Shown here: piece after piece, positions 8,795-41,080 of the stretch
How positions within the stretch are numbered: the stretch's first letter is position 1
Layout of the letters: the number at the start of each line of letters is the position of its first letter
Origin: Bacteroidales bacterium
GTDB lineage: Bacteria; Bacteroidota; Bacteroidia; Bacteroidales; VadinHA17
Reading direction: 5' to 3'
Assembly: GCA_025358455.1 (NCBI GenBank)
Contig: JANYJP010000017.1
Location: 38,781 to 102,780, forward strand
Length of the DNA stretch: 64,000 nt
Made by a program: the position numbers and the translations under genes
The notes under the pieces: generated by a model
Databases searched by the model: none
The model's input: only the letters and a program-made list of their open reading frames with translations
What the model was told of the DNA's origin: nothing

Positions 8795-8862
8795 CAAAAA
8801 TAAGTGTATGACAAGAGTGCCTGATTAAGGTCAGGTTAATATTAAATTAAGATTACATTAAG
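8795..8862 (-). promoter_or_regulatory. Class-1 module: four 11-bp-phased hexamers (CTTAAT/CTTAAT/ATTAAC/CTTAAT), then N21, then TATTTTTG (-7-like box)
   Basis: On the minus strand the hexamers lie at 8862-8857, 8851-8846, 8840-8835 and 8829-8824. An exact 21-nt spacer follows, then TATTTTTG (8802-8795), which fits TAnnTTTG. The module ends 67 nt before the sod ATG. Confidence 0.6.
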
Positions 8863-8923
8863 ATTAGTAACATACTGATATTCAAGCCAGTAAGCAATTG
8901 AAAAAACACGATCTGAGTTAAGG

Positions 8924-8974
8924 GTTTATAATAAAACAAGAATTGCCCGGGATCAGTCCCAGGCAGTTCTTGTT
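8924..8974 (-). terminator. Rho-independent terminator-like hairpin after the response regulator gene
   Basis: Imperfect 17-bp inverted repeat AACAAGAA(T/C)TGCC(C/T)GGG (8935-8974) with a 6-nt loop, followed on the minus strand by TTTTATTAT. Confidence 0.55.
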
Positions 8975-8991
8975 TTAACCGGAAATATGAA

Positions 8992-9675
8992 TTACGCCTC
9001 TTGGCTCAATGAATATCCGAATCCTTTTTTAGTATGGATCAGCTTAATATCGAAGTCTTTATCTATTTTCTTTCTGAGGGAATTTATATGGACATCAATG
9101 ACGTTTGTTCCGGAATTGAAAGAGAATCCCCATATTTTTTCTGCAATCAGAAATCTGTCGAATACTTTTCCTTTATTACTCAGAAGAAGTTCGAGGATTT
9201 TATATTCCGTAGCTGTAAGATTAATCTCTTTCCCGTTTCTTTTAACTTTCCTTGCGATAGAATCAAGTTCCAGATCTGCAACAATTAATAAAGGGTTAAT
9301 TATAGCTTCATGGTTTCTCCGGTTCAGTGCTTTGATACGGGCAAGCAGTTCCTGGAAACTGAATGGCTTCACCAGATAATCATCTGCTCCAAAATCGAAA
9401 CCTGTCAGTTTATCTTCAACTGAATCAAGAGAAGTAAGCATTATGATCGGGGTCAGAATATTTTTGTTCCTGATTTTTTTACATAAATCGAATCCTGTTA
9501 TACCGGGTATAACAACATCAAGTATAATCACATCATATTTTTTTGAAAAAGCCAGTTTTTCACCAATTGTGCTGTCATATGCTATATCAACAAAACAATC
9601 ATTACTTTCCAATCCTATCTTAACAAAGGAGGATATCTTCTGGTCATCTTCAACTAATAGAATTTTCATACTCAA
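8992..9675 (-). CDS. OmpR/PhoB-family response regulator (receiver plus winged-helix DNA-binding domain)
   Basis: 'KILLVEDD', 'DVIILDVVIPGITGFDLC' and 'MLTSLDSVEDKLTGFDFGADDYLVKPF' mark the receiver. 'LTATEYKILELL...VIDVHINSLRKKID' marks the Trans_reg_C domain. No kinase gene is in the same transcription unit. Confidence 0.9.
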   Translation of the reverse strand: MSMKILLVEDDQKISSFVKIGLESNDCFVDIAYDSTIGEKLAFSKKYDVIILDVVIPGITGFDLCKKIRNKNILTPIIMLTSLDSVEDKLTGFDFGADDYLVKPFSFQELLARIKALNRRNHEAIINPLLIVADLELDSIARKVKRNGKEINLTATEYKILELLLSNKGKVFDRFLIAEKIWGFSFNSGTNVIDVHINSLRKKIDKDFDIKLIHTKKGFGYSLSQEA

Positions 9676-9995
9676 CGAAATATAGTATTTACTACATCAA
9701 TTGTAAATTTAGTAAATTTTTGTCAGACCATTATAAAAAACTCACATAAAGGTTGTCAATCTATGTTAAATAAATATAATGATAACTTACGCGACCAACG
9801 GTAATTAACTAATATACAATAATTTGTATCCGGTGAAGGTTCCTAATTCAGCTTCGTTCGCCACGTGTAACCTGATCATAAAAATTATTATCATTCTATT
9901 CACATTGAAATTAATCCGGAATTTAGCTTAACTTTATGGATCATATTAACTGAGGTTAGCAGTGAATATTAATTAAGAATTAAACTGAACCTCTC

Positions 9996-12638
9996 ATGGA
10001 AAATAGGGATTCCAAACCAAAAAAAAACCTTAAAAAAAATATCTCTGGTCCAATGGTTTTAAGGACTAAAGGAATCTCATTCCCTATAGTCGGTATTGGA
10101 GCATCAGCAGGAGGGCTGGAAGCACTTGGACAGTTTTTCAGCAATCTTCCTCTTAATACCGGAATGGCTTTTGTAGTAATTCAACACCTTGACCCTACGC
10201 ATAAAAGTATTATGCCAAAACTTCTTCAGCGGGTTACTTCCCTGAAGGTTATTATTGTCACTGACCGTTTGAAAATCAAACCTGAATGTGTGTATGTGAT
10301 CCCTCCAAATACAAGCATGTCGATTTTGAAAGGAGCATTACATTTATTCGAACCTGTTGAAGTTCGCGGGTTGAGGCTCCCTATTGATTTTTTCTTCAGT
10401 TCTCTTGCCGATGACAGTTCAGAAAAGAGTATTGGTATAATACTTTCAGGAATGGGTTCGGATGGCACTTCCGGACTTCGATCAATTAAAGAAAAGGGTG
10501 GTATTGCTCTTGTTCAGGATCCCAATTCCGCGAAATTTGATGGAATGCCCAGAAGCGCGATTGAAAATGTTCTGGTTGATATAATAGCTCCGGCAAATGA
10601 ACTGGGAGGGAAACTCATTGATTTCCATAATCACCCTCCGGTGATTTCTTCAGGAGATTCTTTTGATCTTAAAGATAAGAGCTCACTCGAAAAAATCATC
10701 ATGCTTCTTCGTAAATATACCGGCAATGACTTTTCACAATATAAGAAAAACACTATTTATCGCAGGATTGAACGACGCATGGCAGTTCATACTATTGCCA
10801 AAATAAATGATTATGTAAGGTTTCTCCAGAAAAACGCCAGTGAGGGCGAAATCCTGTTTAAAGAGCTATTAATTGGGGTAACCAGTTTTTTTCGCGATCC
10901 GGATGTTTGGGACAAGCTGAAAGACAGTGTTTTACCTGACTTAATAGCCAGAGCGCCGTTAGGATATTCGATAAGGGCATGGGTGCCAGGCTGCTCAACC
11001 GGCGAAGAAGCTTATTCTCTTGCAATTATATTTAAAGAGATACTGGATCGATTCAAAACCGACAGAAAAATATCTTTGCAGATATTCGCCACCGATCTGG
11101 ATAGTGATTCTATTGCAATAGCAAGAAAAGGTATCTTCCCTGAACAGATTGCCGCAAATATATCACCGGACAGGCTGGGCCGTTTTTTTGCACATAAACA
11201 GAACAGCTACCGGATAAATGCAGGATTAAGGGAAATGGTAGTATTTGCACCGCACAATGTTATTAATGATCCCCCGTTTACCAGGATGGATATTATTACA
11301 TGCCGTAACCTCCTTATATACTTTGAACCTGAAATCCAGAAAAAGCTTCTAACCATGTTTCAGTATAGTCTCAATCCCGAAGGTATTCTGATCCTTGGAA
11401 ACGCTGAAACTCTTGGATTTCAAAATCACAGCTTCAATACTATTGATGCTAAACTGAGACTCTTCCGGAAATATATAACTGAGGAAACAGTTGAAGGTAA
11501 GAATTTTCCATCTTTTTTTCAACTAACAAACGCTATTGAAAATGAAAAGACAATAACAATGAAAGGACCTGAAAATATTCAGTTTTTTGCTGACAAGTTT
11601 TTGCTGCAGCACTTCTCCCCTTCCAGTGTGCTGGTAAATGATAAAGGCGATATTATATATATCACAGGTCATACCGGAAATTATCTGGAACCTGCAGCAG
11701 GTAAAGCAAATCTTAACATTTTTGCCATGGCACGCAAAGGATTGCAAAACGAACTTCCGGGTGCTTTCCGCAGAGTAATACAAAAAAAGGAAACAGTTGT
11801 TCTGAAAAATCTGACTATTGGAACAAATGGCGGGTATAAATCTATAGATGTTACGATTCAGAAAATTGATATGCCGGAGGCATTGAAAGGCATGATAATG
11901 GTGATCTTTACTGAAGCAAAAAGTGCCGTAGCAATAAAAAGAACCAATACAAAAAGTGTAATTACACCGGAATTCAATAACAAATCCGATCTTGAAACTG
12001 AGCTTGAGCATACCAGGGAAGAATTGCTGATAGCAAATGAAGAGGCGCAGGCATCGAAGGAACTTCTTACTTCTGCAAATGAAGAACTTCAATCTGCCAA
12101 TGAGGAGCTTCAATCAACTAATGAAGAACTTCAATCAACTAATGAGGAGCTTTTAACATCCAAGGAAGAGTTGCAAAGCCTGAATGAAGAACTTCAGACG
12201 GTGAATGCCGAACTACAGAACAACATAGAGGACTTCACCTCTGTAAACAATGATTTGAAAAACCTTCTTGACAGTTTAGATATTGCTACACTCCTGGTTG
12301 ATAAAAAACTAATAATCCGCCGGTTTACAAAACAGGCAACTACGGTTTTTAAACTGAAAGAAGGAGATGTAGGCCGGCCATTTACTGGCCTCGCCTCCAA
12401 TCTGGATTACAAGGAGATGGAAGGTGATGCTCTGAATGTTCTGCAGACACTGATATTAATTGAAAAAACAATTCCGGCTAAAGACGGACGCTGGTTTAAA
12501 GTCCGTATCCTGCCCTATCGGACAGTTGATGACAGGATTGACGGTCTGGTAATTACATTATCTGACATTACAATAGCAAAAAAACTTGAAGCTGAACTGA
12601 ATAGTACAATTGAGAAACTCAATGCTCATAACATTTAA
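9996..12638 (+). CDS. CheB methylesterase / CheR methyltransferase fusion with a heptad coiled coil and a C-terminal PAS domain
   Basis: 'VGIGASAGGLEAL...VVIQHL' is a CheB-like region. 'KKNTIYRRIERRM' and 'RAWVPGCSTGEEAYSLAI...RNLLIYF' form the CheR SAM-methyltransferase. The NEELQS heptad array and a PAS-like C-terminus follow. Confidence 0.85.
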   Translation: MENRDSKPKKNLKKNISGPMVLRTKGISFPIVGIGASAGGLEALGQFFSNLPLNTGMAFVVIQHLDPTHKSIMPKLLQRVTSLKVIIVTDRLKIKPECVYVIPPNTSMSILKGALHLFEPVEVRGLRLPIDFFFSSLADDSSEKSIGIILSGMGSDGTSGLRSIKEKGGIALVQDPNSAKFDGMPRSAIENVLVDIIAPANELGGKLIDFHNHPPVISSGDSFDLKDKSSLEKIIMLLRKYTGNDFSQYKKNTIYRRIERRMAVHTIAKINDYVRFLQKNASEGEILFKELLIGVTSFFRDPDVWDKLKDSVLPDLIARAPLGYSIRAWVPGCSTGEEAYSLAIIFKEILDRFKTDRKISLQIFATDLDSDSIAIARKGIFPEQIAANISPDRLGRFFAHKQNSYRINAGLREMVVFAPHNVINDPPFTRMDIITCRNLLIYFEPEIQKKLLTMFQYSLNPEGILILGNAETLGFQNHSFNTIDAKLRLFRKYITEETVEGKNFPSFFQLTNAIENEKTITMKGPENIQFFADKFLLQHFSPSSVLVNDKGDIIYITGHTGNYLEPAAGKANLNIFAMARKGLQNELPGAFRRVIQKKETVVLKNLTIGTNGGYKSIDVTIQKIDMPEALKGMIMVIFTEAKSAVAIKRTNTKSVITPEFNNKSDLETELEHTREELLIANEEAQASKELLTSANEELQSANEELQSTNEELQSTNEELLTSKEELQSLNEELQTVNAELQNNIEDFTSVNNDLKNLLDSLDIATLLVDKKLIIRRFTKQATTVFKLKEGDVGRPFTGLASNLDYKEMEGDALNVLQTLILIEKTIPAKDGRWFKVRILPYRTVDDRIDGLVITLSDITIAKKLEAELNSTIEKLNAHNI
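12078..12224 (+). repeat. Seven in-frame 21-bp tandem repeats encoding an N-E-E-L-Q-S-x heptad array
   Basis: Units read aatgaagaacttcaatctgcc / aatgaggagcttcaatcaact / aatgaagaacttcaatcaact / ... They encode ANEELQSANEELQSTNEELQSTNEELLTSKEELQSLNEELQTVNAELQ. Confidence 0.85.
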
Positions 12639-12649
12639 CACCAGAAAAA

Positions 12650-14299
12650 ATGAGTAAAGGGAAAAGCATATTAAATACCACAGGAGTTTCTTCTCTTCGG
12701 CAAAAAGCGGAAGACCATCTTAAAAGCAGAAGGACCAAATCAGAATTGCAGATATCAGAAATAGCTGCACATAAACTACTCCATGAACTGGAGGTTTACA
12801 AGATTGAGCTGGAAATGCAGAACGAAGAATTAAGAAATGCACGCGATTCAGCTGAAAATGTACTGGATAAATATTCTGCTCTTTTTGATTTTTCACCTGC
12901 AGGATATTTCGTTCTAACCAGGGAAGGTATCATCAGCCGTCTGAACTTTATGGGAGCCAAAATGTTGGGAAAGGAACGTTCAAAGCTTGTTAATGTAAGG
13001 TTCAGGCAATTTCTTTCCCATGACAGCAGGAATGACTTCGATGATTTCTTACATGATGCTTTTGAATTCAAAACCAAGACATCATGTGAAGTCATAATTG
13101 ATAAAAATGACAACCTCCCAATATTTATTTATATGGAAGGTTTTGTTAACGCTGACGATAAAGAACTCCTTGCGATTACTTTTGATATTACCAGGCGAAA
13201 GGCAGTTGAAAAAGAATTGATGCTCTCAAAAGAGAAAATGGACCTTGCCCTTGAAAATGGCAATATAGGGGCGTGGGAATGGGATATAAACACCAACAAA
13301 GTTACCTGGGACCAGAGAATGGAAAAAATTTTCGGTTTCAAACCGGGAACATTTGGTGAAGCTTATCCGGAGTTCGAAAACTGTATTAATGAAGAAGATA
13401 TCCCCCATTTCAGGAAAGCCATTAAACGGACTTTAGAGAATGATATTCCCTTTGAAACTGTATTCAGGACTATTCCTATCAACGGAGAGTCTAAATATAT
13501 TTCCACAAAAGCCCTCGTTAATAAAGAATTGAATGGGAACCCTGTCAGTATGACCGGGGTATGTTTTGATGTTACAGGAATGAAAAAGGGGACTGAACAA
13601 GTTCTTTTAAGACTAAATGAAGAATTGCTTCGCTCTAATAAGGACCTGCAGCAGTTTGCTTATGTTGCATCGCACGACCTCCAGGAGCCTCTGCGAATGG
13701 TGTCGAGTTTTACGCAAATGCTGGCATTGCACTACGAAGATAAATTAGATAAAGAAGCAAAGGAATATATTAAATATGCCGTTGCCGGGGCAAAAAGAAT
13801 GTATGAACTGATAAATGGACTCCTTGCATATTCACGTATCCAGACAAAAGGCAAGGAATTTACAAAGGTGAACATGAATGAAATTTTTGATGCCGTGATC
13901 AGAAATCAGAGTCTAAAGATTGAAGAAAAGAATGTGGTAGTCACCTGTGGTAAATTACCTGTCGTATCAGCTGATGAAAGTCAGATGATCCAGCTTCTTC
14001 AGAACCTTATATCAAATGCTATAAAATTCAGTCCGGATCCTCCGGTAATTCAGGTTTTATCGAAAGCTGAAGATAATAAATATATCTTTTCAGTAATTGA
14101 CAAAGGAATAGGAATCGATCCTCAATATTTTGAAAGAATCTTCCTTATATTTCAGAGGCTCATGCCAAAAGATGATTATGAAGGTACCGGAATTGGGTTG
14201 GCTATCTGCAAACGAATTGTTGAGAGACACGGTGGAACTATCTGGGTGGAATCGGAACCAGGTAAGGGCTCCACATTCCGTTTCACAATTTCAAGATAA
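12650..14299 (+). CDS. Cytoplasmic PAS-domain sensor histidine kinase (HisKA 'SHDLQEPLR' type)
   Basis: Coiled coil 'LHELEVYKIELEMQNEELRNA', two PAS-like regions, H-box 'FAYVASHDLQEPLRMV', and ATPase motifs 'NLISNAIKF', 'DKGIGI' and 'GTGIGLAICKRIVE'. It starts 11 nt after the CheB/CheR gene. Confidence 0.9.
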   Translation: MSKGKSILNTTGVSSLRQKAEDHLKSRRTKSELQISEIAAHKLLHELEVYKIELEMQNEELRNARDSAENVLDKYSALFDFSPAGYFVLTREGIISRLNFMGAKMLGKERSKLVNVRFRQFLSHDSRNDFDDFLHDAFEFKTKTSCEVIIDKNDNLPIFIYMEGFVNADDKELLAITFDITRRKAVEKELMLSKEKMDLALENGNIGAWEWDINTNKVTWDQRMEKIFGFKPGTFGEAYPEFENCINEEDIPHFRKAIKRTLENDIPFETVFRTIPINGESKYISTKALVNKELNGNPVSMTGVCFDVTGMKKGTEQVLLRLNEELLRSNKDLQQFAYVASHDLQEPLRMVSSFTQMLALHYEDKLDKEAKEYIKYAVAGAKRMYELINGLLAYSRIQTKGKEFTKVNMNEIFDAVIRNQSLKIEEKNVVVTCGKLPVVSADESQMIQLLQNLISNAIKFSPDPPVIQVLSKAEDNKYIFSVIDKGIGIDPQYFERIFLIFQRLMPKDDYEGTGIGLAICKRIVERHGGTIWVESEPGKGSTFRFTISR

Positions 14300-14489
14300 G
14301 ATCATTCATTAAATGATTACTGATTCAAGGCTTTTTTCTGCCTTTAATGTCCTTATTTGAATTATATTGCAGAAACCTGTTTATATGATTTTTTATGGCA
14401 TGCTTTTTTAATACTTAAAATATTTACTTTTGAATTCTCAAAGATTTGCAATGTCTGAAAGCAAAACGAACCAATTCTAAAGGAACGAC

Positions 14490-17400
14490 TTGTATTCAAT
14501 AGATATGAAACCCAGAACCCAAATTACAGTATTGATCTCGCTTGCAGTTATTTTTCTTATAAGCTTAATTGATCTTACAGGATGGATATTTAATATATCT
14601 GCCTTTGACAGTTTTGGATCAGGTTGGGTAACAATGAAAGCCATAACGGCAGTGTGCTTCATATGCTCCGGAGCAGCCATGCTTTTAGTTCAGGCTGGTT
14701 CGGATAACAGGTTAAAAACAGGAATTTCAAGAATACTGGCTGCTATAATCGGGATAATAAGCTTATTGACAATTGCTGTTTCTCTAAATCTAATTATCAG
14801 GGGTGTTGAAGCTCAGATTACCCTAGTTCCTTTTTTTAACAGTTTTCTTGCTCCGGGAAACCGCATGGCATTAATCACTTCAGTTATCTTTCTTCTGTCA
14901 GCAAACATATTTGTTTTATTGTCTTTAAAAAAACAGTGGGCAGGCAATGTTGCCCATATTCTGGTCTTCCCTTTAGGTATGGCAGGCTATTTAATGCTTA
15001 TTAGTTATATCTTAAATGCTTATTCATTACAGGACCTAAAGTATGAAGCGGCACCGCTGAATTCTACAATTGCTCTTTGTGCATTATGTGTAATAATTCT
15101 ACTTATACGTCCGCGGACCTGGCTTATGAAAGTATTCTCTGACAACAGTGCAGGGGGAATAATAGCTCGCAGGCTCTTACCGGGTCTTGTATTACTACCT
15201 ATTCTGATTGGATGGTTGAGTATCTACGGTGAACATAAGGGCTTGTTTCGATCTGAATACGGAGTAGCGCTTGTAACGCTGACATATTCTACCTGCTTCG
15301 TATTACTGGTTTGGTTTATAGCAAGATCTGTTATTCTTACTGACCAGAAACGGATCAAATCAGAAGAAGCTTTACGAACCAGCGAAAGCAACTTCCGTGC
15401 TATCCTGGATGCCACAAAGGAGTCTATATATATGTTTGACAGGGAAGGAAGATTTGTGGTATCCAATATAACTGGTGCCAAACGCTTAAATCTGACAATT
15501 CCGGAATTTACAGGTCATCCTTTTTCTGAATATATGAGTGAAGAACTCGCCTGTTCGCAAATGGAAAAACTTACATCTGTATTCAAATCGGAAAAACCAA
15601 TTGAATTCGAAGATGAGCGAAACGGCATGATCTTTAATCATAATTTTTACCCTGTATTTGAAGGAGGTAAGGTAATACGTGTTGTTGCTTATAGCCAGGA
15701 GATAACCGAACGTAAAAAAGCTGAGACTGAACTGATGCGTTCAAGGCAGGAATGGATTGACACTTTTGATATTATACCTGATCTGATTTCAATCATTGAT
15801 ACTAAACACAAGGTTGTAAGGGCAAATAAGGCAATGCTTGAAAAATTAGGAGTTACTGCAGAGGAAATTTCAGGAACTCCCTGTTTCAATTGTGTACATG
15901 GCACTCAATCTGCTCCTTCACTATGTCCGCATACATTAACCCTGCTTGACGGTAAGCAGCATATTGCTGAAGTACATGAAGATCGACTCGGAGGTGATTT
16001 TATTGTCAGCAACACTCCTATGTTTGATAAAGCCGGGAAGATTATCGGTTCTGTTCACGTAGCCCGGGATATTACAGAACGTAAAAAAGCTGAGGAAGCA
16101 CTTAAAGCAACCGAAGAACGTGTAAAACTTAAACTGGAAGGTATTCTCTCTCCCGAAGGAGATATAGGTATACTTTCGCTTGCTGATATCATTGATGTAC
16201 AAGAGATTCAGATTCTGATGGACAACTTATACAAACTTGTCCGGATACCGATGGCTATAATTGACGATAATGGTAAAGTTTTAGTTGGTGTGGGATGGCG
16301 CGACATATGTACCAAATTCCATAGGATCAATAAGGAAACTTCCAGGAACTGCATAGAAAGCGATACAAATCTTACTAAGGGAATACCCGAAGGAGAATTC
16401 CGGCTTTATAAATGCAGGAACGGAATGTGGGATATTGCAACCCCAATGTTTATCGGAGGCAGGCATATAGGTAATCTTTTCATGGGTCAGTTCTTTTTTG
16501 ACGACGAACCTATTGATTATGAATTTTTTCGCAAGCAAGCTACCAAATTTGGATTCGATGAAAAAGAGTATATTTCTGCTCTTGAAGAGGTTCCCCGATT
16601 GAGTAAATCGATCCTGGAAAGCGCCAAAGGATTTTTTCTGGGTCTCTCCCGTTCGCTCTCAAAGCTGAGTTATAGCAATATTAAACTGGCACGCAATATA
16701 TCTGAACGAGAGAGAACAGAAACGAAATTACTTCAGTTAAACCGTACCCTAAATTCGATCGGGAAAAGTAGCAAGGCCATGATGCTTGCCGAAAATGAAT
16801 TAAGTTACCTCGATAATGTCTGCCGGATCATTGTGAAAGACTGCGGCCATGCATTAGTCTGGATAGGATATACCCAGAACGATTCTGATAAAACAGTTAC
16901 ACCGGTTTCATTTTCGGGCTTTGAAGAGGGTTATATGAAAAATCTTAATATTACCTGGGCTGATACAGAACGTGGAAGAGGTCCTACAGGAACTGCTATC
17001 AGAACAGGGAAAACAGTAGTATGCCCTGATATGCAGACCGACCCTTCTTTTAAACCATGGCGCGGGGAAGCATTAAAAAGAGGTTATGCATCATCAATTG
17101 TATTACCTCTTATTGCAGAAGAAACAACATTCGGTGCCCTTTCAATATATTCCAAAGAAACTAACCCGTTTTCTGAGGACGAGGTTAATCTGCTTTCAAC
17201 CCTGGCCAATGATCTGGCCTATGGCATATCGTACATAAGGTTGATTGAATCTGAAAAAAAGGCAACAAAATCAATCAGGGAGAGTGAAGAGAAGTACCGT
17301 CTTCTGTTCCACGGAATGACTGAGGGTTTTGCCCTGCATGAAATAATCACCGATAATAAAGGTAACCCTAGCGATTATCGGTTCCTCAGCGTAAACCCGG

Positions 17401-19124
17401 CTTTTGAAAATCAAACCGGACTGGTAGCTGAGAATATAATCGGACGGAAAGTCACAGAGGTCTTGCCCGGTACTGAAAAATACTGGATAGATATATACGG
17501 TAAGGTGGCGCTCACCGGGGAAAGCATTGATTTTGAAAATTATCATTCGGAATTACAAAGATACTTCAGAGTCAGTGCATTCAGTCCCCAAAAAGGCTTC
17601 TTTGCTGTAATATTCGAAAATATAACCAACCGTATACTTGCCGAGAAAGAGTTGAAAGAGACAAAAAATTATCTTGAGAATCTCATAAATTATTCAAACA
17701 CACCAATAATAGTCTGGAATACAAAAAATGAGATACAGCTCTTTAATCATGCCTTTGAACACTTAACAGGTTATTCAGCTTCTGAAGTTGAAGGTAAAAA
17801 AATCGATTTTTTGTTTCCTGAAACTTCATTAAAGGAATCAAAAGAGAAGATAAGGCTGGCCATAACAGAAAACCTGGAAATAATGGAAATTCCTGTACTG
17901 ACCAAAAAAATGGAAACCAGAGTAGTTCTGTGGAATTCTGCAAAGATTTATGATAATGACGGGGAAGTATTATCAACTATAGCTCAGGGAAATGATATAA
18001 CCGAAAGAATTACAGCTGAAGAGGCAGTTAAAAAGGCAAAAGATAAACTTGATCTTGCTCTTGAAAACGGAAACATAGGCATATGGGAATGGGATCTGAT
18101 ATCCAAAAGATTTGAATGGGACGTAAGGATGAAAAGAATGTTTGGAATGAAACAATCATCGAAGGAAAAAACATATGCTGCGTTTGAAAGGAACATTGTT
18201 GAAGAGGACCGTCCTCATACACGAAACGCATTCCGGAAGGCTATTGAAGAAGACATTCCATTTGAAACAATATTCAGAATCAGACTTAAAAATGATGCGA
18301 TAAGTCATATAAGTACGAAAGCACTGGTAGAAAAAGATCATAATAATAAACCTGTTAAGCTGTCAGGTGTCTGTTTCGATATTACAGATATGAAAAGAGG
18401 TACTGAAAATGTAATGTTCCGACTTAATGAGGATTTACTCCGATCGAACAAAGAACTTGAACAATTTGCTTATATAGCCTCTCACGATCTGCAGGAACCT
18501 CTGCGGATGGTATCAAGTTTTACCCAGTTGCTCTCAGTAAGATATAAAGACAAACTTGACAAAAATGCCCAGGAATTCATACAATATGCTGTTGACGGGG
18601 CTGTCCGTATGCAGGGTCTGATAAATGACCTTCTTGAATATTCAAGAATAGAAACAAGAGGCAAAATGTTTTCTGCTATTGACCTTCACAAAGTGCTGGG
18701 ACACACCATAAAAAACCTGAGTATTTTAATAAAGGAGAAAAATGCTGTTATCATAAATGATGAATTACCAGCTATTTTAGCTGACGAAGGACAGATGATT
18801 CAGTTATTTCAGAACCTTATTGGCAATGCAATAAAATTTTGTGACACCTCACCCCTGATACATATTTCATGTAAAGAGGAAAAAGAAAATTATGTATTTA
18901 CTATAAAAGATAACGGAATCGGGATGGAGCCTCAGTACTTCAATAAGATATTCCAGATCTTTCAAAGATTACGTGAAAAAGATGAGTATGGAGGAACCGG
19001 AATCGGCCTCGCGATCTGCAAACGTATTGTAGAACGCCACGAAGGGAAAATATGGGTAGAATCAAAACCCGGAAAAGGATCAACATTCTATTTTTCGATA
19101 AGTAAAAATATAAATAACAGATAA
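14490..19124 (+). CDS. Giant membrane sensor histidine kinase (polytopic N-domain, multiple PAS, PocR-like, GAF, HisKA, HATPase)
   Basis: About 290 aa of hydrophobic helices, then several PAS units separated by 'ITERKKAE' linkers. The PocR-like segment 'YKCRNGMWDIATPMFIGGRHIGNLFMGQ' lies at ~16200-16510. A GAF-like region and H-box 'FAYIASHDLQEPLRMV' follow. An alternative start is at 14505 (MKPRTQ). Confidence 0.85.
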   Translation: MYSIDMKPRTQITVLISLAVIFLISLIDLTGWIFNISAFDSFGSGWVTMKAITAVCFICSGAAMLLVQAGSDNRLKTGISRILAAIIGIISLLTIAVSLNLIIRGVEAQITLVPFFNSFLAPGNRMALITSVIFLLSANIFVLLSLKKQWAGNVAHILVFPLGMAGYLMLISYILNAYSLQDLKYEAAPLNSTIALCALCVIILLIRPRTWLMKVFSDNSAGGIIARRLLPGLVLLPILIGWLSIYGEHKGLFRSEYGVALVTLTYSTCFVLLVWFIARSVILTDQKRIKSEEALRTSESNFRAILDATKESIYMFDREGRFVVSNITGAKRLNLTIPEFTGHPFSEYMSEELACSQMEKLTSVFKSEKPIEFEDERNGMIFNHNFYPVFEGGKVIRVVAYSQEITERKKAETELMRSRQEWIDTFDIIPDLISIIDTKHKVVRANKAMLEKLGVTAEEISGTPCFNCVHGTQSAPSLCPHTLTLLDGKQHIAEVHEDRLGGDFIVSNTPMFDKAGKIIGSVHVARDITERKKAEEALKATEERVKLKLEGILSPEGDIGILSLADIIDVQEIQILMDNLYKLVRIPMAIIDDNGKVLVGVGWRDICTKFHRINKETSRNCIESDTNLTKGIPEGEFRLYKCRNGMWDIATPMFIGGRHIGNLFMGQFFFDDEPIDYEFFRKQATKFGFDEKEYISALEEVPRLSKSILESAKGFFLGLSRSLSKLSYSNIKLARNISERERTETKLLQLNRTLNSIGKSSKAMMLAENELSYLDNVCRIIVKDCGHALVWIGYTQNDSDKTVTPVSFSGFEEGYMKNLNITWADTERGRGPTGTAIRTGKTVVCPDMQTDPSFKPWRGEALKRGYASSIVLPLIAEETTFGALSIYSKETNPFSEDEVNLLSTLANDLAYGISYIRLIESEKKATKSIRESEEKYRLLFHGMTEGFALHEIITDNKGNPSDYRFLSVNPAFENQTGLVAENIIGRKVTEVLPGTEKYWIDIYGKVALTGESIDFENYHSELQRYFRVSAFSPQKGFFAVIFENITNRILAEKELKETKNYLENLINYSNTPIIVWNTKNEIQLFNHAFEHLTGYSASEVEGKKIDFLFPETSLKESKEKIRLAITENLEIMEIPVLTKKMETRVVLWNSAKIYDNDGEVLSTIAQGNDITERITAEEAVKKAKDKLDLALENGNIGIWEWDLISKRFEWDVRMKRMFGMKQSSKEKTYAAFERNIVEEDRPHTRNAFRKAIEEDIPFETIFRIRLKNDAISHISTKALVEKDHNNKPVKLSGVCFDITDMKRGTENVMFRLNEDLLRSNKELEQFAYIASHDLQEPLRMVSSFTQLLSVRYKDKLDKNAQEFIQYAVDGAVRMQGLINDLLEYSRIETRGKMFSAIDLHKVLGHTIKNLSILIKEKNAVIINDELPAILADEGQMIQLFQNLIGNAIKFCDTSPLIHISCKEEKENYVFTIKDNGIGMEPQYFNKIFQIFQRLREKDEYGGTGIGLAICKRIVERHEGKIWVESKPGKGSTFYFSISKNINNR

Positions 19125-19126
19125 AT

Positions 19127-19582
19127 ATGGGAATCACTCTTTTAAATTCAATTGACATCCTTGTTGTTGAGGACAATCCCGGCGATGCGCGACTTATCAC
19201 GGAGGTTCTTAACGATAACAAAGTGTTTAGTTCTCTTTATATAGTGAACGATGGCGTTGAGGCAATGCGTTTTCTTAAAAACGAAGGAAAATATAAAACT
19301 GTACTGAAACCTGACCTGATCATTCTTGATCTGAATCTGCCAAAGAAAGACGGACGGGAAGTGCTGGCTGAAATAAAATCAGATGAAGGGCTGAAACATA
19401 TTCCAATTGTTATTATGACCATATCGCAGGCTGAAGAGGACATACTGAAATCGTATAACCTTCATGCAAACTGTTATATAACAAAACCGATTGACCTTAA
19501 TCAGTTTATAAAGGCGGTCAAGTCCATCGAAGATTTCTGGTTTTCAATAGTAAAGCTACCTCCGAAAACGGAAGATGTTTAA
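19127..19582 (+). CDS. Stand-alone receiver-domain response regulator (Rcp1/CheY-like)
   Basis: 'ILVVEDNPGDARLI', 'PDLIILDLNLPKKDG' and 'PIVIMTISQAEEDILKSYNLHANCYITKP'. There is no output domain. It starts 2 nt after the kinase stop. Confidence 0.9.
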   Translation: MGITLLNSIDILVVEDNPGDARLITEVLNDNKVFSSLYIVNDGVEAMRFLKNEGKYKTVLKPDLIILDLNLPKKDGREVLAEIKSDEGLKHIPIVIMTISQAEEDILKSYNLHANCYITKPIDLNQFIKAVKSIEDFWFSIVKLPPKTEDV

Positions 19583-19642
19583 TGAGAATTTAATAATCAT
19601 TCAATTGAATGATGACCGAAGAATTGTTGACATAATCTAACA

Positions 19643-21511
19643 ATGAATTCTATGGTACCTGAGCCTGTCAATGGAAGACCTTCACATGAGCTGGTAAAAG
19701 AACCTGTGTTAAATATCATGATTATTGAAGACAATCCGGGGGACATTATTATTGTCAGGAAATTGTTAAAGTCTTCAGGTCTCCTCTTCAATTTAACGGA
19801 AGCCTCATCATTAAAATCAGCACTTGCACTCTTCACTGATAATAATTTCGATATTATCCTTTTAGATCTTGGACTGCCTGACAGTATTGGGCTGGAAACC
19901 TTAAAGAAATTACAGGTTTTTAAGGTTGTGCCTCCTGTAGTTGTAATGACAGGATTAGATGATGAAGATACTGCACTGGAATCTTTGCGGGAGGGAGCTC
20001 AGGATTACCTGGTCAAGAACAGATTAACTTCAGAGATTATTCTGCGTTCAATAAAATATAGTATTGAAAGGAAGATACTACAGAACATACAGAAAAAAAA
20101 TACTCAGAGGTTTTCATTACTTTCAAATACTACAGCATTTTTGAATGAATGCGATGACATATCTTTAATTTACAAAATAATATGTGATAGTATAAAGTTA
20201 TTACTCGACAATACAATTTCATTTTCTATTGAATATACAGATGACCGGAGTTTTCGTTTTTCTAATATTGGCCAACTTAAATCCTGGTTTAAAAAATCCA
20301 ATTTATTAACAGACCTTGATATTGAAAATCAGATTTTTGATATTGAAGAGCAGAAAAAAGAATTTGGCAATTACTTCAGTGATGGAAAACTTCACAAAAT
20401 AGGCGGGGAGTTGATCGATATTTTTCCAGGCAAAGCTGATAGGGATAAAAGCCTGGAACAGGAAAGAAACATCGGCATCAATTATACCTATGCTGTTGGG
20501 TTTATGAGAAATAAAAACTACTATGGCGGCACAATTATTTCCTGCACTGAAATGATTGGCGATGATGATAAAAACATTATTGAAAACATTTGCAGCCAGG
20601 CCTCCATAAGTATTTACAGAATGGTTATTAAGAAGAATCTCAGAATAAGTGAACTCAGTTATCAGATGTTAAATCAGGAGCTTGAACAAAAAGTAAGTGA
20701 ACGCACTCAGGAACTGGAAAATGCAAATATACTTCTGAACCGTGAGCTTATTGAGCATAATATAGCCGAGGAAGCACTCAGGGAGAGTGAAGCTTTGCTA
20801 AGAGAACTTAATGCAACCAAGGACAAATTTTTCAATATAGTTGCTCATGATCTTAAAAATCCTTTCACCAGCCTTCTTGGTGCAACGGAACTGCTCTTTG
20901 AGAACATTGAGAAAATGGACGCCGAAAAAATCAAGAGACTTGCACAAATATTGAATGATTCGGCAAAAAGCGGTTATGCAATACTTCTTAACCTTCTTGA
21001 TTGGTCACGCTCACAAACGGGACTAATTAAAATCAATCCTGAAAGGATTAATTTGAAAAAATTACTGGATGAAAATATTTCAGAAATGCAGTTATTTTTA
21101 AATAATAAAGAGATTAATCTGAATTCAGAAGCTACGGAGGATATGTACATTTTTGTTGATAAAAATATGCTTAATACTATATTGCGTAATCTGATAAGTA
21201 ATGCGTTAAAATTCACATGCAGAGGGGGCAGTATAGTTATCAGGGCAAATATTAGCGAACAGAAAGTTATAATTTCGGTGAAAGATACCGGAATAGGAAT
21301 ATCTGATGATAATGTTGACAAGTTGTTCAGAATAGATTCAAAATATACCCGCCCAGGTACTGATAAAGAACAGGGCACCGGCCTGGGACTAAAATTAAGC
21401 AAAGAATTTGTCGAGAAACTGGGTGGTAAGATATGGGTAAAAAGTATCGAAAATAAAGGAAGTGAATTTATTTTCTCAATTCCTTTATTTACAGCCCCCA
21501 AGCCTCTTTAG
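19643..21511 (+). CDS. Hybrid sensor: N-terminal receiver, uncharacterised middle domain, HisKA, HATPase
   Basis: Receiver motifs 'IMIIEDNPGD...DIILLDLGLPD...VVMTGLDD...DYLVKN'. H-box 'FFNIVAHDLKNPF'. ATPase motifs 'RNLISNALKF', 'DTGIGI' and 'GTGLGLKLSKEFVE'. Confidence 0.85.
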   Translation: MNSMVPEPVNGRPSHELVKEPVLNIMIIEDNPGDIIIVRKLLKSSGLLFNLTEASSLKSALALFTDNNFDIILLDLGLPDSIGLETLKKLQVFKVVPPVVVMTGLDDEDTALESLREGAQDYLVKNRLTSEIILRSIKYSIERKILQNIQKKNTQRFSLLSNTTAFLNECDDISLIYKIICDSIKLLLDNTISFSIEYTDDRSFRFSNIGQLKSWFKKSNLLTDLDIENQIFDIEEQKKEFGNYFSDGKLHKIGGELIDIFPGKADRDKSLEQERNIGINYTYAVGFMRNKNYYGGTIISCTEMIGDDDKNIIENICSQASISIYRMVIKKNLRISELSYQMLNQELEQKVSERTQELENANILLNRELIEHNIAEEALRESEALLRELNATKDKFFNIVAHDLKNPFTSLLGATELLFENIEKMDAEKIKRLAQILNDSAKSGYAILLNLLDWSRSQTGLIKINPERINLKKLLDENISEMQLFLNNKEINLNSEATEDMYIFVDKNMLNTILRNLISNALKFTCRGGSIVIRANISEQKVIISVKDTGIGISDDNVDKLFRIDSKYTRPGTDKEQGTGLGLKLSKEFVEKLGGKIWVKSIENKGSEFIFSIPLFTAPKPL

Positions 21512-21530: not shown

Positions 21531-21598
21531 ATTAATCCTGTCTTAAGTATTTATTAATTTAATCTTAATGCAAAGAGGCGCTTTTAAACTTAAGTTAG
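21531..21598 (+). promoter_or_regulatory. Class-1 module: phased hexamers ATTAAT/CTTAAG/ATTAAT/CTTAAT, then N21, then TAAGTTAG
   Basis: Hexamers start at 21531, 21542, 21553 and 21564, an exact 11-bp period. A 21-nt spacer follows, then TAAGTTAG (21591-21598), which matches TAnnTTTG at 7 of 8 positions. It lies upstream of regulator paralog 2. Confidence 0.5.
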
Positions 21599-21764: not shown

Positions 21765-22325
21765 TTGAAACTTTACATAAAAAATATGGTTTGCATTCGA
21801 TGCAAAATGGCAGTGAAGTCAGAATTGGAAAATTTCGGACTGCATTACTCTTTTGTTGATTTTGGTGAAGCAGAAATCCGGGAAAATATTTCACAGGTAC
21901 AACGTGAACAGTTAAATATAGCTTTAAAAAAATCAGGGTTTGAACTAATGGATGATAAGAAAAGTATGCTGATTGAAAAAATCAAAATCCTTATTCTTGA
22001 ATTGGTTCATTATTCAGATGAACCTTTAAAAAAGAATCTTTCCGACTACATAAGTGAAAAACTTAATTATGACTACACCTATCTCGCCAATCTTTTTTCA
22101 GAAGCCCAGGGTACAACTATTGAAAAGTTCTTTATAAATCATAAGATTGAAAGAATAAAAGAATTACTGGTTTATGATGAACTCAATTTAAAAGAAATAG
22201 CTTTTAAGTTACACTATAGCAGCGTAGCTCACCTGTCGAGCCAGTTTAAAAAACATACTGGTTTAACTCCCTCCCACTTTAAACAGCTCAAGCACAAAAA
22301 ACGTGTTCCTCTTGAGAATGTGTGA
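21765..22325 (+). CDS. Small regulator paralog 2: HMA-like N-domain (intact MxCxxC) plus AraC-type double HTH
   Basis: A TTG start gives 'MKLYIKNMVCIRCKMAVKSELENFG', a ferredoxin-like HMA pattern with CxxC. The C-terminus has 'YDYTYLANLFSEAQGTTIEKFFINHKIERIKELL' and 'LKEIAFKLHYSSVAHLSSQFKKHTGLTPSHF', the AraC HTH pair. Confidence 0.75.
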   Translation: MKLYIKNMVCIRCKMAVKSELENFGLHYSFVDFGEAEIRENISQVQREQLNIALKKSGFELMDDKKSMLIEKIKILILELVHYSDEPLKKNLSDYISEKLNYDYTYLANLFSEAQGTTIEKFFINHKIERIKELLVYDELNLKEIAFKLHYSSVAHLSSQFKKHTGLTPSHFKQLKHKKRVPLENV

Positions 22326-22385
22326 AATATGTAACTTATTACAATAGTTATGTAACATAAATACATACCAGGGTGACCATCTTTG
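22321..22385 (+). promoter_or_regulatory. Class-2 stress module, copy A
   Basis: TGTGAAATATGTAAC-N15-TGTAAC-N21-CATCTTTG. It overlaps the stop codon of the regulator gene and ends 82 nt before the ATG at 22468. Confidence 0.6.
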
Positions 22386-29232: not shown

Positions 29233-29296
29233 ATTTCACATATTATTTTCTCCAATACAACGTTTTAAGTAACGTCCTGTTATTTACTCAAAAATG

Positions 29297-29361
29297 TGTG
29301 AATAATGTAACTAATTCTAAAAGTTGTATAACGCTTCTCAGAATAAAGCCAACCATCTTTA
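29297..29361 (+). promoter_or_regulatory. Class-2 stress module, copy B
   Basis: TGTGAATAATGTAAC-N15-TATAAC-N21-CATCTTTA. It ends 38 nt before the ATG at 29400. Confidence 0.6.
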
Positions 29362-29399: not shown

Positions 29400-29843
29400 A
29401 TGGAAAAAACTAATTTAAAAACCCCGGTAAGGAATACCTTATTATTCATTGCAGCCGTAATAATGATATCCTCTTTAAATTCTTGCGCGTTAAAAAAACC
29501 ATTCCTGTTATCATCTGTAGAACCAGCAGCCAGAGGAACTGTCACAATAAAAAGTGATAAGAATAAAAATTATAAAATTAAAGTACAAATATATAATCTG
29601 GCTGAAGCTAACAGGCTTCCCGGAGTAAAGAGTACTTACGTAGTATGGATGATAACGGTGGAAAAGACTACAAAAAATATAGGTCAGATTAAAAGCTCCA
29701 CAGGCATCCTTTCTAAACGGCTTAAAGCTTCTCTGGAGACAAAATCGTCATTTAAGCCCACTAAAATATTTCTTACACTTGAGGATGATGCAAGCATTCA
29801 ATCGCCGATAGGTCAGGTTGTGTTATCAACCAATAATTTTTAA
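29400..29843 (+). CDS. Hypothetical lipoprotein
   Basis: Signal and lipobox-like 'LLFIAAVIMISSLNSC'. 147 aa, beta-rich. No family recognised. Confidence 0.5.
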   Translation: MEKTNLKTPVRNTLLFIAAVIMISSLNSCALKKPFLLSSVEPAARGTVTIKSDKNKNYKIKVQIYNLAEANRLPGVKSTYVVWMITVEKTTKNIGQIKSSTGILSKRLKASLETKSSFKPTKIFLTLEDDASIQSPIGQVVLSTNNF

Positions 29844-38704: not shown

Positions 38705-38749
38705 CGGGAATAAGGAAATCTCTTTTCTTTAATTTTAAAACTTTAGAAA

Positions 38750-38917: not shown

Positions 38918-39020
38918 TACCATTGCGGATTTAGAGTAAATGTACCGGAACCATATTAAACAGGGTTGCGTAATACAGACCAACACCCTTAGATAAAACT
39001 TATAAGCAAGGCTGTTAATG

Positions 39021-39085
39021 TGTGAATAATACAACTCTTTTGTTTCATTGTGTAATACTTTCCAGTATTTAAGATTTCACCTTTG
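39021..39085 (+). promoter_or_regulatory. Class-2 stress module, copy C
   Basis: TGTGAATAATACAAC-N15-TGTAAT-N21-CACCTTTG. It ends 41 nt before the ATG at 39127. Confidence 0.6.
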
Positions 39086-39126
39086 TATTCATGTGATAAT
39101 CCATTCACATTGTAATAAATAATGAC

Positions 39127-39504
39127 ATGAAAAATATTGATTTCGTTCAAAATGATGCACAAAATGCTCGTAAAAGCCTGAAAAAGTTCATTTATATAAT
39201 GGGTTTTATAGGAATAGCATTGCTGGCTAATTCCTGCGTTCTTGGTTATGTTGCAACAGAACCTGTTTATGTGGAATCTGTAAGGCCTTCCCGTCCGAGT
39301 AATCTTTCTATCTGGATAGACGGTGATTGGGTGTATAACCGTCAATCTCATCTATATTCACGGAACGCGGGCTATTGGGAAATGCCAAGTCAGAACAGGA
39401 CGTATGTTAGCGGTCGCTGGCAATCAGGGCCACAGGGCAAATATTGGGAAAGAGGTCGTTGGCAGCGTAATGGCCGTCAGGCTAAACATAACAACCAAAG
39501 ATGA
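39127..39504 (+). CDS. Small lipoprotein with WxxGxW-type repeats
   Basis: Lipobox-like 'IALLANSC'. It has 'WIDGDW' and 'WERGRW' (WxxGxW) plus the related 'YVSGRW', and a basic tail. Confidence 0.55.
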   Translation: MKNIDFVQNDAQNARKSLKKFIYIMGFIGIALLANSCVLGYVATEPVYVESVRPSRPSNLSIWIDGDWVYNRQSHLYSRNAGYWEMPSQNRTYVSGRWQSGPQGKYWERGRWQRNGRQAKHNNQR

Positions 39505-39639
39505 ATATTCTGACATAAGTTAAAGTGTGATATCCGAACTTGTAAAATTTAAACATTGAAGCATATACTTACCAGATTAAAAATCTTTGTAACTATATAC
39601 TTTTTTGTTTAACCTTTGTTTAATAAAAAAATCACTGAA

Positions 39640-40536
39640 ATGTTTATCGATTATTACAAGGTTCTGGGATTAGATAAAAAGGCAGCCCAGAAGGATATCA
39701 AAAGCGCCTACCGAAAATTAGCCAGGAAGTACCACCCTGACTTAAATCCGAATAATAAAGATGCAAAAAGGAACTTCCAGGAGATCAATGAAGCAAATGA
39801 GGTACTAAGTGACCCCGCGAAACGAAAGAAGTACGATCAATATGGGAAGGATTGGCAACATGCTGATGAGTTTAAGAAAGGCGGCCAGTATCAGGAACAA
39901 TCGTCAGCTTCACGCAGACCGGATTATTCCACGACTCAAAACGAAGGAGAGTTCTCTGACTTCTTTGAGTCTCTCTTTGGCGGATTTGGAGGCAGTAGAA
40001 GCACCAGACAGGTAAAATACAGAGGAGAAGATTACAATGCTGAATTGAAACTTGATTTGAAGGAGGCATATGAAACACACAAACAGACATTTACCGTTAA
40101 CGGTGAAAAAATAAGGATTACTATTCCTGCCGGAATTGAAAATGGGCAAACAATAAAAATTTCCGGCCATGGCGGATCAGGAATAAACGGAGGTCCCAAT
40201 GGTGATCTTTATATTAAATTTTTTATCGATAACGATCCACGGTTCAAACGCGCTGGAAATGATTTATTCACTTCAGTTGATCTGGATATATATACTGCAA
40301 TATTAGGCGGCGAAATCATTATTGATACACTTGACGGGAAAGTAAAATTAAAAGTTAAGCCTGAAACACAAAATGGAAGTAAAGTAAAGTTAAAAGACAA
40401 AGGTTTTCCTGTTTATAAAAACAAGGAGATGCACGGAGATTTATATTTAACCTATTCAATTAAAATTCCAACTAATCTGACTGAAAAACAAAAAGAGTTG
40501 TTTTCTGAGTTGTCAAATATCAATCTTAAAAAATAA
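39640..40536 (+). CDS. cbpA: CbpA-type DnaJ co-chaperone (J domain plus C-terminal substrate-binding domains, no zinc finger)
   Basis: 'DYYKVLGLDKKAAQKDIKSAYRKLARKYHPDLN' contains the HPD motif. A G/F-like linker and DnaJ_C repeats ('GEDYNAELKLDLKEAY', 'GDLYIKFFI') follow. The ATG at 39640 is preferred over the track's TTG at 39616. Confidence 0.85.
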   Translation: MFIDYYKVLGLDKKAAQKDIKSAYRKLARKYHPDLNPNNKDAKRNFQEINEANEVLSDPAKRKKYDQYGKDWQHADEFKKGGQYQEQSSASRRPDYSTTQNEGEFSDFFESLFGGFGGSRSTRQVKYRGEDYNAELKLDLKEAYETHKQTFTVNGEKIRITIPAGIENGQTIKISGHGGSGINGGPNGDLYIKFFIDNDPRFKRAGNDLFTSVDLDIYTAILGGEIIIDTLDGKVKLKVKPETQNGSKVKLKDKGFPVYKNKEMHGDLYLTYSIKIPTNLTEKQKELFSELSNINLKK

Positions 40537-40541
40537 AACTA

Positions 40542-40838
40542 ATGAAAAAAGATAGTTTGATAAGCGCAAGAGAGTTCTGTAGCAGTCACAACATTGAGAT
40601 ATCATTTATCAGTTCACTTGAGGAATATGGATTGATAGAAATGGAAACTATTGATAAATCAATTTTCATTCATCAAAGCCAGTTGCAGGAGCTGGAAAAA
40701 ATTGTTCGCTTTTATTACGAGTTGGAGATTAACCTTGAAGGTATTGAAGCGATTACCTACCTGTTAAACCGAAGTAACGAAATGCAGAACGAAATTATAA
40801 CACTACGGAATAAGCTTCGTTTATATGAGGATATTTAG
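40542..40838 (+). CDS. cbpM: CbpM-like chaperone modulator (MerR-like fold)
   Basis: 98 aa, 5 nt after cbpA. 'FCSSHNIEISFISSLEEYGLIE' and 'LEINLEGIEAITYLLNR' resemble CbpM. The cbpA-cbpM gene order is conserved. Confidence 0.7.
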   Translation: MKKDSLISAREFCSSHNIEISFISSLEEYGLIEMETIDKSIFIHQSQLQELEKIVRFYYELEINLEGIEAITYLLNRSNEMQNEIITLRNKLRLYEDI

Positions 40839-41012
40839 CCAGCGCCTGGAATAAATATTCATGCATTTTAGATACTAAGAATTATAATAGATTAAAATCC
40901 TGATATCAGGATCTGTAGATATTAATTATCTGTAAGGAATGTTTTATTTCTGACCATACATTATACAACTTCCTTATTATCTGATTCTTACCTTCTTTTT
41001 TAATAATTTCAT

Positions 41013-41080
41013 ATTAACGTCTTCTTAATTTCATCTTAATTAAGACTTAATGTCCTTCGCATCTATTTGGCATATTTTTG
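41013..41080 (+). promoter_or_regulatory. Class-1 module: phased hexamers ATTAAC/CTTAAT/CTTAAT/CTTAAT, then N21, then TATTTTTG
   Basis: Hexamers start at 41013, 41024, 41035 and 41046, an exact 11-bp period. A 21-nt spacer follows, then TATTTTTG (41073-41080). It ends 98 nt before the ATG of regulator paralog 3. Confidence 0.6.

Follow-up and report, generated by a model that had tools for sequence, protein, structure and literature searches.

In promoters activated by PhoB, pho boxes can stack in phase and the proximal box replaces the -35 element, with PhoB contacting sigma. Each PhoB dimer occupies 22 bp, composed of two 11-bp tandem repeats with seven conserved and four spacer bases each (PMC4447250), and cryogenic electron microscopy of Mycobacterium tuberculosis PhoP has revealed successive boxes bound by tandem dimers, tetramers and hexamers that replace the contact of sigma region 4 with the -35 element, a tandem binding that the authors proposed as general for the OmpR/PhoB family (PMC11825685). 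Transcriptional regulation in the uncultured Bacteroidales is almost unmapped, and a literature search for Bacteroidales two-component systems controlling sod or an extracytoplasmic function (ECF) sigma factor returned nothing relevant. Here, we analyze a 64-kb stretch of a Bacteroidales genome (the whole stretch is hereafter called the window) in which four-unit arrays of a TTAA-containing repeat, phased at 11 bp, form part of three promoters, and we follow these arrays, their candidate binding protein (an OmpR/PhoB-family response regulator) and a second, "class-2" promoter module through related genomes. Judged by sequence comparison, the arrays are most likely tandem OmpR/PhoB-type activator sites, an element of a well-known kind, that serve a previously undescribed regulon in uncultured Bacteroidales.

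Three phased arrays in the window

Array 1 (8824..8862, minus strand; CTTAAT-gtaat-CTTAAT-ttaat-ATTAAC-ctgac-CTTAAT) lies upstream of the Fe/Mn superoxide dismutase (SOD) gene sod and the small gene par1, array 2 (21531..21569, plus strand; units ATTAAT, CTTAAG, ATTAAT and CTTAAT) upstream of par2, which encodes a regulator with an HMA-like and an AraC-type domain, and array 3 (41013..41051, plus strand; units ATTAAC, CTTAAT, CTTAAT and CTTAAT) upstream of its divergent paralog par3. Each array is followed, 21 nt past its last unit, by a -7 box: TATTTTTG for array 1 (8795..8802, minus strand), the variant TAAGTTAG for array 2 (21591..21598, plus strand), and TATTTTTG again for array 3 (41073..41080, plus strand). 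An earlier note on this DNA had described the three arrays, and their sequences, positions and downstream genes, the exact 11-bp period, the 21-nt distance and the claim that they exceed chance were all borne out.

The phased arrays of the three promoters are real and non-random. The pattern TTAA-N7, repeated four times, has three matches in the 64 kb, which are arrays 1-3, and none in 100 dinucleotide-preserving shuffles. When the 559 TTAA of the window were chained at periods of 6-19 bp, runs of more than two occurred only at period 11, again as arrays 1-3, and a weight matrix built for the arrays gave them 40-44 bits, compared with <13 bits for the best unrelated site of the window and 8 bits for the best shuffled one; a search of the window with this matrix yielded no weaker arrays elsewhere. 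Chance similarity of AT-rich DNA, or descent of the arrays from copies of a repeated or mobile element, could appeal to the composition of the window, which is AT-rich (38.6% GC), and to the perfect 11-bp CTTAAT minisatellites that exist in metagenomes. However, the flanks and spacers of the three sites cannot be aligned with each other outside the repeats and the box, so the arrays are not copies of one element, and the module is kept across genomes whose SOD is merely 58-69% identical. With the shuffles, the period test, the weight matrix, the alignment and the excess of boxes at offset 21 (see below) all at odds with it, this explanation is effectively refuted and retains a negligible probability. 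A scan of the whole window against Rfam found no RNA families, so neither the array nor the class-2 module is a known RNA element, and sigma-70-type promoter scans of the three array regions scored no better than shuffles, which is unsurprising in Bacteroidetes.

Genomic coupling of the arrays to a response regulator and its probable kinase

Among the window's open reading frames scanned, only one encodes a response regulator with a DNA-binding output domain (8992..9675, minus strand; Pfam Response_reg and Trans_reg_C), and this OmpR/PhoB-family protein is the candidate to bind the arrays. Its top NCBIfam family is CusR/CopR/HprR (TIGR01387), at 238 bits, under the cut-off of 279; it likewise does not pass the CusR model (218 bits, cut-off 420), the HprR model (217, cut-off 353), the PhoB equivalog TIGR02154 (183, cut-off 296) or the Bacteroidetes PhoB model (174, cut-off 270), and its orthologues are annotated as CusR by JGI. 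The likely cognate kinase is a receiver-HisKA-HATPase histidine kinase (19643..21511, plus strand), past whose stop codon array 2 begins at a distance of 20 nt.

Since the contigs of a metagenome pattern scan (described below) had been found through the array itself, the reverse test was run through the regulator, using seven of its orthologues (84-89% identical) that were chosen only for long contigs, with 10 kb on each side. In all seven loci, a four-unit array lies 33-150 nt past the regulator stop codon and is directed at the gene that follows; four times this gene encodes an ECF sigma factor, twice SOD and once a par1-like protein. Two extra arrays stand ahead of an AraC gene (with 60% identity to par2) and of a gene for a 187-aa protein, and no others were found in the ~140 kb of these loci. 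A kinase is encoded divergently from the regulator in six of the seven, and its transmitter is 61-66% identical to that of the kinase at 19643-21511 (compared over residues 332-615 of the latter, or 392-620 in two loci). The earlier note had proposed that an OmpR-type regulator acts on the arrays, and the seven-for-seven association lends that model comparative support; its further suggestion that a large kinase cluster signals to the regulator fits the divergent kinase, whereas the other kinases of the cluster have no comparative support.

The ECF sigma factor (167-175 aa) is the commonest gene directly behind a regulator-linked array and is without an orthologue in the window; it is usually followed by a gene for a ~180-aa protein with no Pfam match, and then by SOD. 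It occurs in L204 (5536-6039), L205 (10942-11445), L207 (10852-11355) and L210 (10933-11436), as well as in L189 (7347-7853) and L169 (2076-2603, reverse complement of the stored locus), and would represent a third regulatory layer in these relatives. Genes for hemerythrin, ferritin/rubrerythrin and peroxiredoxin also lie near the regulator loci.

The AraC genes behave differently. The earlier note had treated the array as a hallmark of "HMA-AraC" regulator genes and named its presence at AraC orthologues of related genomes as a check, which fails among distant relatives: across 80 loci of par2 orthologues (66-83% identical, one genome per species across Bacteroidota), arrays were found in two only, with four exact units in L004 and one TTTA mismatch in L001, and the other 78 loci (~470 kb) held no array at a matrix score of at least 20. 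The array thus does not go with the AraC gene family as such but is a hallmark of the regulator. The same two loci are the only ones of the 80 in which an orthologue of the kinase (54-58% identical) lies directly upstream, and L004 additionally encodes an orthologue of the response regulator. A near-array in L002, with spacings of 11, 10, 11 and 7, abuts the start codon, is without an N21 box and was not counted.

These loci also bear on whether the HMA-AraC paralogs bind the arrays themselves, with each DNA-binding domain occupying two major grooves so that a dimer would span four units. Such autoregulation would fit the presence of an array before all three paralog genes of the window and the habit of AraC-type domains of contacting two adjacent major grooves ~10-11 bp apart (the DNA-binding fold of the par2 model matches MarA, Rob and AraC); the class-2 sites, moreover, end in a hexamer at an equal N21 register, which makes the two modules geometrically alike, and par3 and par1 differ from par2 in their presumed recognition helices (by analogy with MarA), so that another specificity is possible. 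However, the helix-turn-helix residues of par2 are almost invariant across the 80 orthologues, so its operator should be equally conserved, and the element conserved at the array-less AraC loci is the class-2 core (95-99 instances in the 80 loci), not the array. In addition, where no AraC gene lies within 10 kb (L205-L207 and L210), arrays still stand before SOD, ECF sigma factor and other genes. Across the loci compared, it is the regulator and kinase that the arrays track, not the AraC gene, and we hold binding by the paralogs to be quite improbable. The earlier note's claim that the arrays drive HMA-AraC regulators is supported for the par genes of the window, but the putative regulon is wider, including SOD, the ECF sigma factor and families of unknown function.

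The metagenome scan used the pattern TTAA-N6-CTTAA-N7-TTAA-N6-CTTAAT and returned 120 stretches, most of which were perfect, non-promoter 11-bp tandem minisatellites that were filtered out by unit identity. In the 59 non-tandem matches, TAnnTTT[GA] stands at an offset of exactly 21 in 14, whereas no other offset between 0 and 62 has more than two. Downstream of the 14 box-bearing arrays lie genes for SOD (three), par1-like and par2-like proteins, an ECF sigma factor, a receiver-PAS-LuxR regulator, a DUF5808 protein, a 249-aa protein of unknown function, a 185-205-aa family of unknown function (two) and a DUF4405-like membrane protein (two), and one array at a contig end has no readable gene. 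Orthologues of the regulator (77-84% identical) are encoded on four of the 14 contigs, with differing gene orders. Over all loci, SOD was seen as the putative array target in L169, L176, L193, L206 and L208, and, besides those of the regulator-chosen loci, orthologues of the kinase (54-66% identical) were found in L001, L004, L136, L155 and L193.

Long CTTAAT-containing minisatellites are present in many contigs among L084-L203 (for example L096, L120, L153 and L174) and would yield false positives in any array search by pattern only. A related-looking array, ATTAAA-acgga-CTTAAA-N5-CTTAAA-N5-CTTAAT, without an N21 box, was observed in the metagenome contigs L167, L187, L188 and L192; in L188 and L192 it stands directly before a gene for a 288-aa lipoprotein-like protein, and an OmpR-family regulator 43-44% identical to that of the window is encoded a few kb away. 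This array may belong to a sister system.

Repeat unit and promoter geometry

We examined the anatomy of the arrays in a pool of 14 instances (56 units) that had not been ascertained by a DNA pattern. The consensus unit reads T (40/56), C (39/56), T (55), T (56), A (55), A (56) and T (46), followed by four variable bases, so that the conserved unit is better described as a heptamer, T-CTTAAT, than as a hexamer, with T preceding the hexamer in 40 of the 56 units. The flanks of the unit are asymmetric (T-C...T), and the repeats are therefore direct and head-to-tail rather than inverted. Every one of the 14 instances has exactly four in-phase units, the period is exactly 11 bp in all three window sites and all 14 pooled instances, and the distance from the last unit to the box is 21 nt in the 14 pooled instances as well as in the 14 that were ascertained by pattern.

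Could the arrays function without the regulator, either as intrinsically bent or flexible DNA or by binding another protein encoded outside the window? Promoters can be stimulated by A/T-rich elements in helical phase, and just 64 kb of the genome is in view. Nonetheless, conserved unit flanks (T at -1, C at 1 and T at 6) next to free 4-5-nt spacers speak for base-specific recognition, every array has four units, one regulator gene accompanies the module in all seven unbiased loci, and no arrays occur in ~470 kb from other loci of Bacteroidota that are similar in composition. We would give this explanation only a slight chance.

With respect to the polymerase, the Bacteroidetes sigma-A -7 box TAnnTTTG occupies -12 to -5 (PMC9723704), and the -33 element of these promoters is weak or dispensable in some Bacteroidetes (PMC7366714). 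The box TATTTTTG of sites 1 and 3 fits the consensus, and TAAGTTAG of site 2 is a variant. If the box is placed at -12 to -5, the array spans about -72 to -34 and its last unit about -39 to -34. A -33 TTTG, which would lie ~19-21 nt upstream of the -7 box, was not found at the three window promoters, where the last CTTAAT unit takes its place, and this replacement is consistent with activator dependence of the array promoters. The sites thus have the layout of a pho-box-like array, with 11-bp direct repeats, units of 7+4 bases, replacement of the -33 element and a linked regulator.

The par2-type promoters, in the window as well as in L001 and L004, have the unusual box TAAGTTAG in place of TAnnTTTG, yet at an unchanged N21. 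In L004, this box (just upstream of position 3001) ends only 4 nt before the ATG, which implies a leaderless or near-leaderless mRNA, compared with a leader of ~165 nt in the window.

Proposed mechanism

We consider it likely, on comparative grounds, that the regulator, once phosphorylated, fills the four units with two dimers and activates the sigma-A polymerase from the -33 position. The regulator would be phosphorylated, most likely by a kinase of the type encoded at 19643-21511, and would then bind head-to-tail, as two tandem dimers over four 11-bp units, such that the promoter-proximal protomer would sit at the place of the -33 element and recruit sigma-A RNA polymerase to the -7 box, which lies 21 nt farther downstream. 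Such a mode would amount to class-II-type activation, as for PhoB and PhoP. Tier-one targets in this genome would be sod and par1, par2, and par3, and the HMA-AraC products would then probably act on class-2 promoters of genes of general-stress type (YtxH, CsbD-like and Dps/ferritin-like genes) in a two-tier cascade. The content of the regulon, together with the CusR/HprR-like (below cut-off) character of the regulator, suggests that the signal is oxygen or an oxidant. Three independent comparative tests support this interpretation overall.

Several points count against it. The link between regulator and array is one of guilt by association, and their adjacency is in part conserved synteny within one Bacteroidales clade, so that the loci are not fully independent; gene order and downstream gene do vary among them. 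OmpR-family regulators are often autoregulated, and no array was found upstream of the regulator gene, only irregularly spaced TTAA, so the regulator is probably not autoregulated through an array-type site. The CusR/CopR/HprR family, furthermore, is typically tied to palindromic boxes, not to four direct repeats.

A final objection concerns the direction of control. ArcA, an OmpR-family protein that binds 11-bp-spaced direct repeats, represses sodA, and the response regulator could similarly sit on the arrays to hold sod and the AraC genes off in one redox state. The array promoters might then fire without an activator, given -7 boxes near consensus (TATTTTTG and TACATTTG) and a -33 element that is weak or dispensable in some Bacteroidetes (PMC7366714). 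However, the array does not reach into the spacer, the -7 box or the start site in any instance; it ends 21 nt upstream of the box in 14 pooled and 14 pattern-derived instances, and it stands in place of the missing -33 TTTG. Occlusion would need no fixed register, whereas contact between protein and polymerase would, and the strict N21 is therefore the main argument for activation; repression appears unlikely to us.

The class-2 module

The earlier note had also pointed to class-2 promoters that share the hexamer-N21-box geometry; the window does contain them, and the module proved to be conserved phylum-wide around AraC orthologues. Five full modules of identical geometry are present, each comprising TGTGTGAA-N3-TGTAAC, N15, a TGTAAC-like hexamer, N21 and cAnCTTT[GA]. 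The module is 67 bp long and can be written as TGTGTGAAT-N-ATGTAAC (also given as aaATGTGTGAAT-N-ATGTAAC), N15, TGTAAC, N21 and cAnCTTTG. All five are on the plus strand. The module at 22319..22385 (TGTGTGAA-N3-TGTAAC...CATCTTTG) overlaps the par2 stop codon and points into a DUF5670/YtxH operon, that at 29295..29361 lies upstream of 29400-29843, that at 39019..39085 upstream of 39127-39504 and an open reading frame at 39616 (J-domain-like by eye), that at 44997..45063 upstream of 45083-45421 and a fusion gene at 45480-46571, and that at 52015..52081 upstream of the CsbD-like 52207-52461 (CsbD at 24 bits, under the Pfam cut-off of 40). A weaker core (51437..51474, minus strand) faces the ferritin/Dps-like 50880-51347 and has no -7 box at the expected position. 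The product of 45480-46571 is a 363-aa fusion of a cytochrome-c/haem-binding domain (Haem_bd, Cytochrome_CBB3) with a complete Fe/Mn SOD, which is an unusual architecture for a SOD.

Across the AraC-orthologue loci, the box stands at +56 to +58 in 74 of 99 instances of the core, with the second hexamer likewise at a fixed position. The taxa concerned are Bacteroidales, Chitinophagaceae, Prolixibacteraceae and Marinilabiliales (loci L002-L079), and the genes that follow the modules include YtxH, CsbD-like, Dps-like and small membrane-protein genes. In 18 of the 80 loci the module overlaps the AraC stop codon (AraC gene position +556; 22310-22335 in the window), where the first half of the class-2 operator is made up of the last codons and the stop (…ENV* = GAAAATGTGTGA), so that coding sequence and regulatory site are co-constrained across the phylum; in 11 loci the module points into the AraC gene itself. 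We found no paper describing the core sequence in this context in a literature search.

In AraC I1-I2, two direct-repeat half-sites lie 21 bp apart with the proximal one at a -33-type position, and the class-2 layout is alike. Going by this layout and the distribution of the core, the module probably serves AraC regulators, and a second tier leading from the HMA-AraC proteins to class-2 promoters is plausible. In most Bacteroidota, the AraC regulator appears to be autoregulated or otherwise controlled, whereas in the window's clade it appears to have been placed under the two-component system instead. We regard the class-2 module as a candidate for a general-stress regulon that spans the phylum and is governed by the HMA-AraC regulator.

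Products of the array-linked genes and neighboring genes

The sod gene (8137..8727, minus strand; Pfam Sod_Fe_N/C) is the first gene after array 1 and is followed by par1 (7654..8100, minus strand; likely start ATG 8091), par2 (21765..22325, plus strand) has orthologues phylum-wide, and par3 (41179..41748, plus strand; 56% identical to par2) is followed by a quinol-type nitric oxide reductase (41976-44270). The earlier note had called all three paralogs HMA-AraC regulators. For par2 and par3, matches to HTH_18/HTH_AraC in Pfam (1.8e-16 and 2.5e-15, respectively) agree with this, whereas par1, a truncated paralog with an HMA-like N-domain, has no Pfam or NCBIfam match, and inspection of its sequence allowed only the first helix-turn-helix to be recognized by eye, the second being missing. 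Pfam HMA does not match the N-terminus of the paralogs. Structurally, the N-domain of the AlphaFold model of par2 has the beta-alpha-beta-beta-alpha-beta order of a ferredoxin-like fold (pLDDT ~90) with a CxxC in its first loop (residues 10-13), a motif not found in the other paralogs, and its comparison with Atx1, GolB and HAH1 gave target-normalized TM-scores of 0.64-0.71 with weak E-values of 0.07-0.3. As far as the model goes, the label HMA-AraC is fair at the fold level only. AraC proteins with an HMA-like CxxC domain may themselves sense a signal.

The par1 family usually lies directly behind sod and consists of 134-148-aa proteins with the first helix-turn-helix only (for example L107 899-1342, 147 aa, and L209 10843-11247, 134 aa) or of 71-79-aa proteins with the HMA-like domain alone, of which L205 12823-13038 and L208 11655-11894 follow sod. 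A pseudogene status of par1 was considered and rejected, with 134-147-aa orthologues and 71-79-aa domain-only versions conserved beside sod or the array. The par1 protein could modulate the full-length regulators or handle metal in connection with SOD.

A terminator-like hairpin (8944..8965, minus strand) lies between the regulator stop codon and array 1, and the array-1 promoter is thus a separate transcription unit. Between the regulator and the probable kinase, the chain of genes at 9996-19582 encodes a CheB-CheR-PAS fusion (880 aa), a PAS kinase (549 aa), a 1544-aa multi-PAS/GAF/PocR kinase and a stand-alone receiver (151 aa), which suggests a branched phosphorelay. Unlike the window, relatives have a single kinase adjoining the regulator, and their regulator-kinase intergenic regions (L136, L204, L205 and L207) carry another conserved motif, aaatTTAAatgattttctTTAAa…TTAACTTGCATAGTTATT, without an 11-bp array.

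Significance and comparison with known systems

The regulator, its probable kinase, the putative DNA site and a first list of targets (SOD, the ECF sigma factor, HMA-AraC regulators and several families of unknown function) can here be read directly from sequence. This makes a putative oxidative-stress circuit available for testing and supplies a compact promoter element that is expected to depend on a single response regulator for its output. The class-2 module and the highly conserved HMA-AraC regulator may matter more than the arrays, and they are the more novel lead. To our knowledge, Bacteroidota lack RpoS and SigB. It is conceivable, though we would sooner bet against it, that an oxygen/redox two-component system in an anaerobic Bacteroidales clade captured the phylum-wide HMA-AraC regulator via portable four-repeat promoters, and that the class-2 module is the general stress response of Bacteroidota. 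If so, the module would be the long-missing general stress response of the phylum, with YtxH, CsbD-like, Dps/ferritin-like and possibly chaperone genes, and the window would show an ancestral regulon and its lineage-specific rewiring together.

Among described systems, the pho boxes of Escherichia coli PhoB (for example at pstS) resemble the arrays in their 11-bp head-to-tail units of seven conserved and four variable bases. They differ in sequence (CTGTCAT in the pho box, TCTTAAT in the arrays) and in that the polymerase of the array host uses the -7 box TAnnTTTG; the window's regulator also falls under the PhoB equivalog cut-offs, and its presumed regulon concerns oxidative and general stress, whereas that of PhoB concerns phosphate. 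Bacillus subtilis PhoP requires four TT(A/T/C)ACA-like hexamers with an 11-bp periodicity, equal to the arrays in both count and period. Tandem dimers that bind successive direct repeats cooperatively are likewise a feature of M. tuberculosis PhoP/GlnR (PMC11825685), from which the present system, known from sequence, differs in phylum, sigma factor and repeat sequence. 

The CusR/CopR/HprR family scores best for the window's regulator, yet below its curated cut-offs (279, 353 and 420), and no copper or silver efflux genes lie beside the regulator, whose putative site is four direct repeats. Within this family, HprR responds to peroxide. The proposed cascade, finally, parallels SoxR-SoxS and MarR-MarA, two-stage cascades in which a sensor-level regulator controls a small AraC-family activator and this in turn a stress regulon that includes SOD; in contrast to both, the first tier here would be a two-component system rather than a MerR- or MarR-type sensor, the AraC proteins have an extra HMA-like CxxC domain, and sod would belong to tier one.

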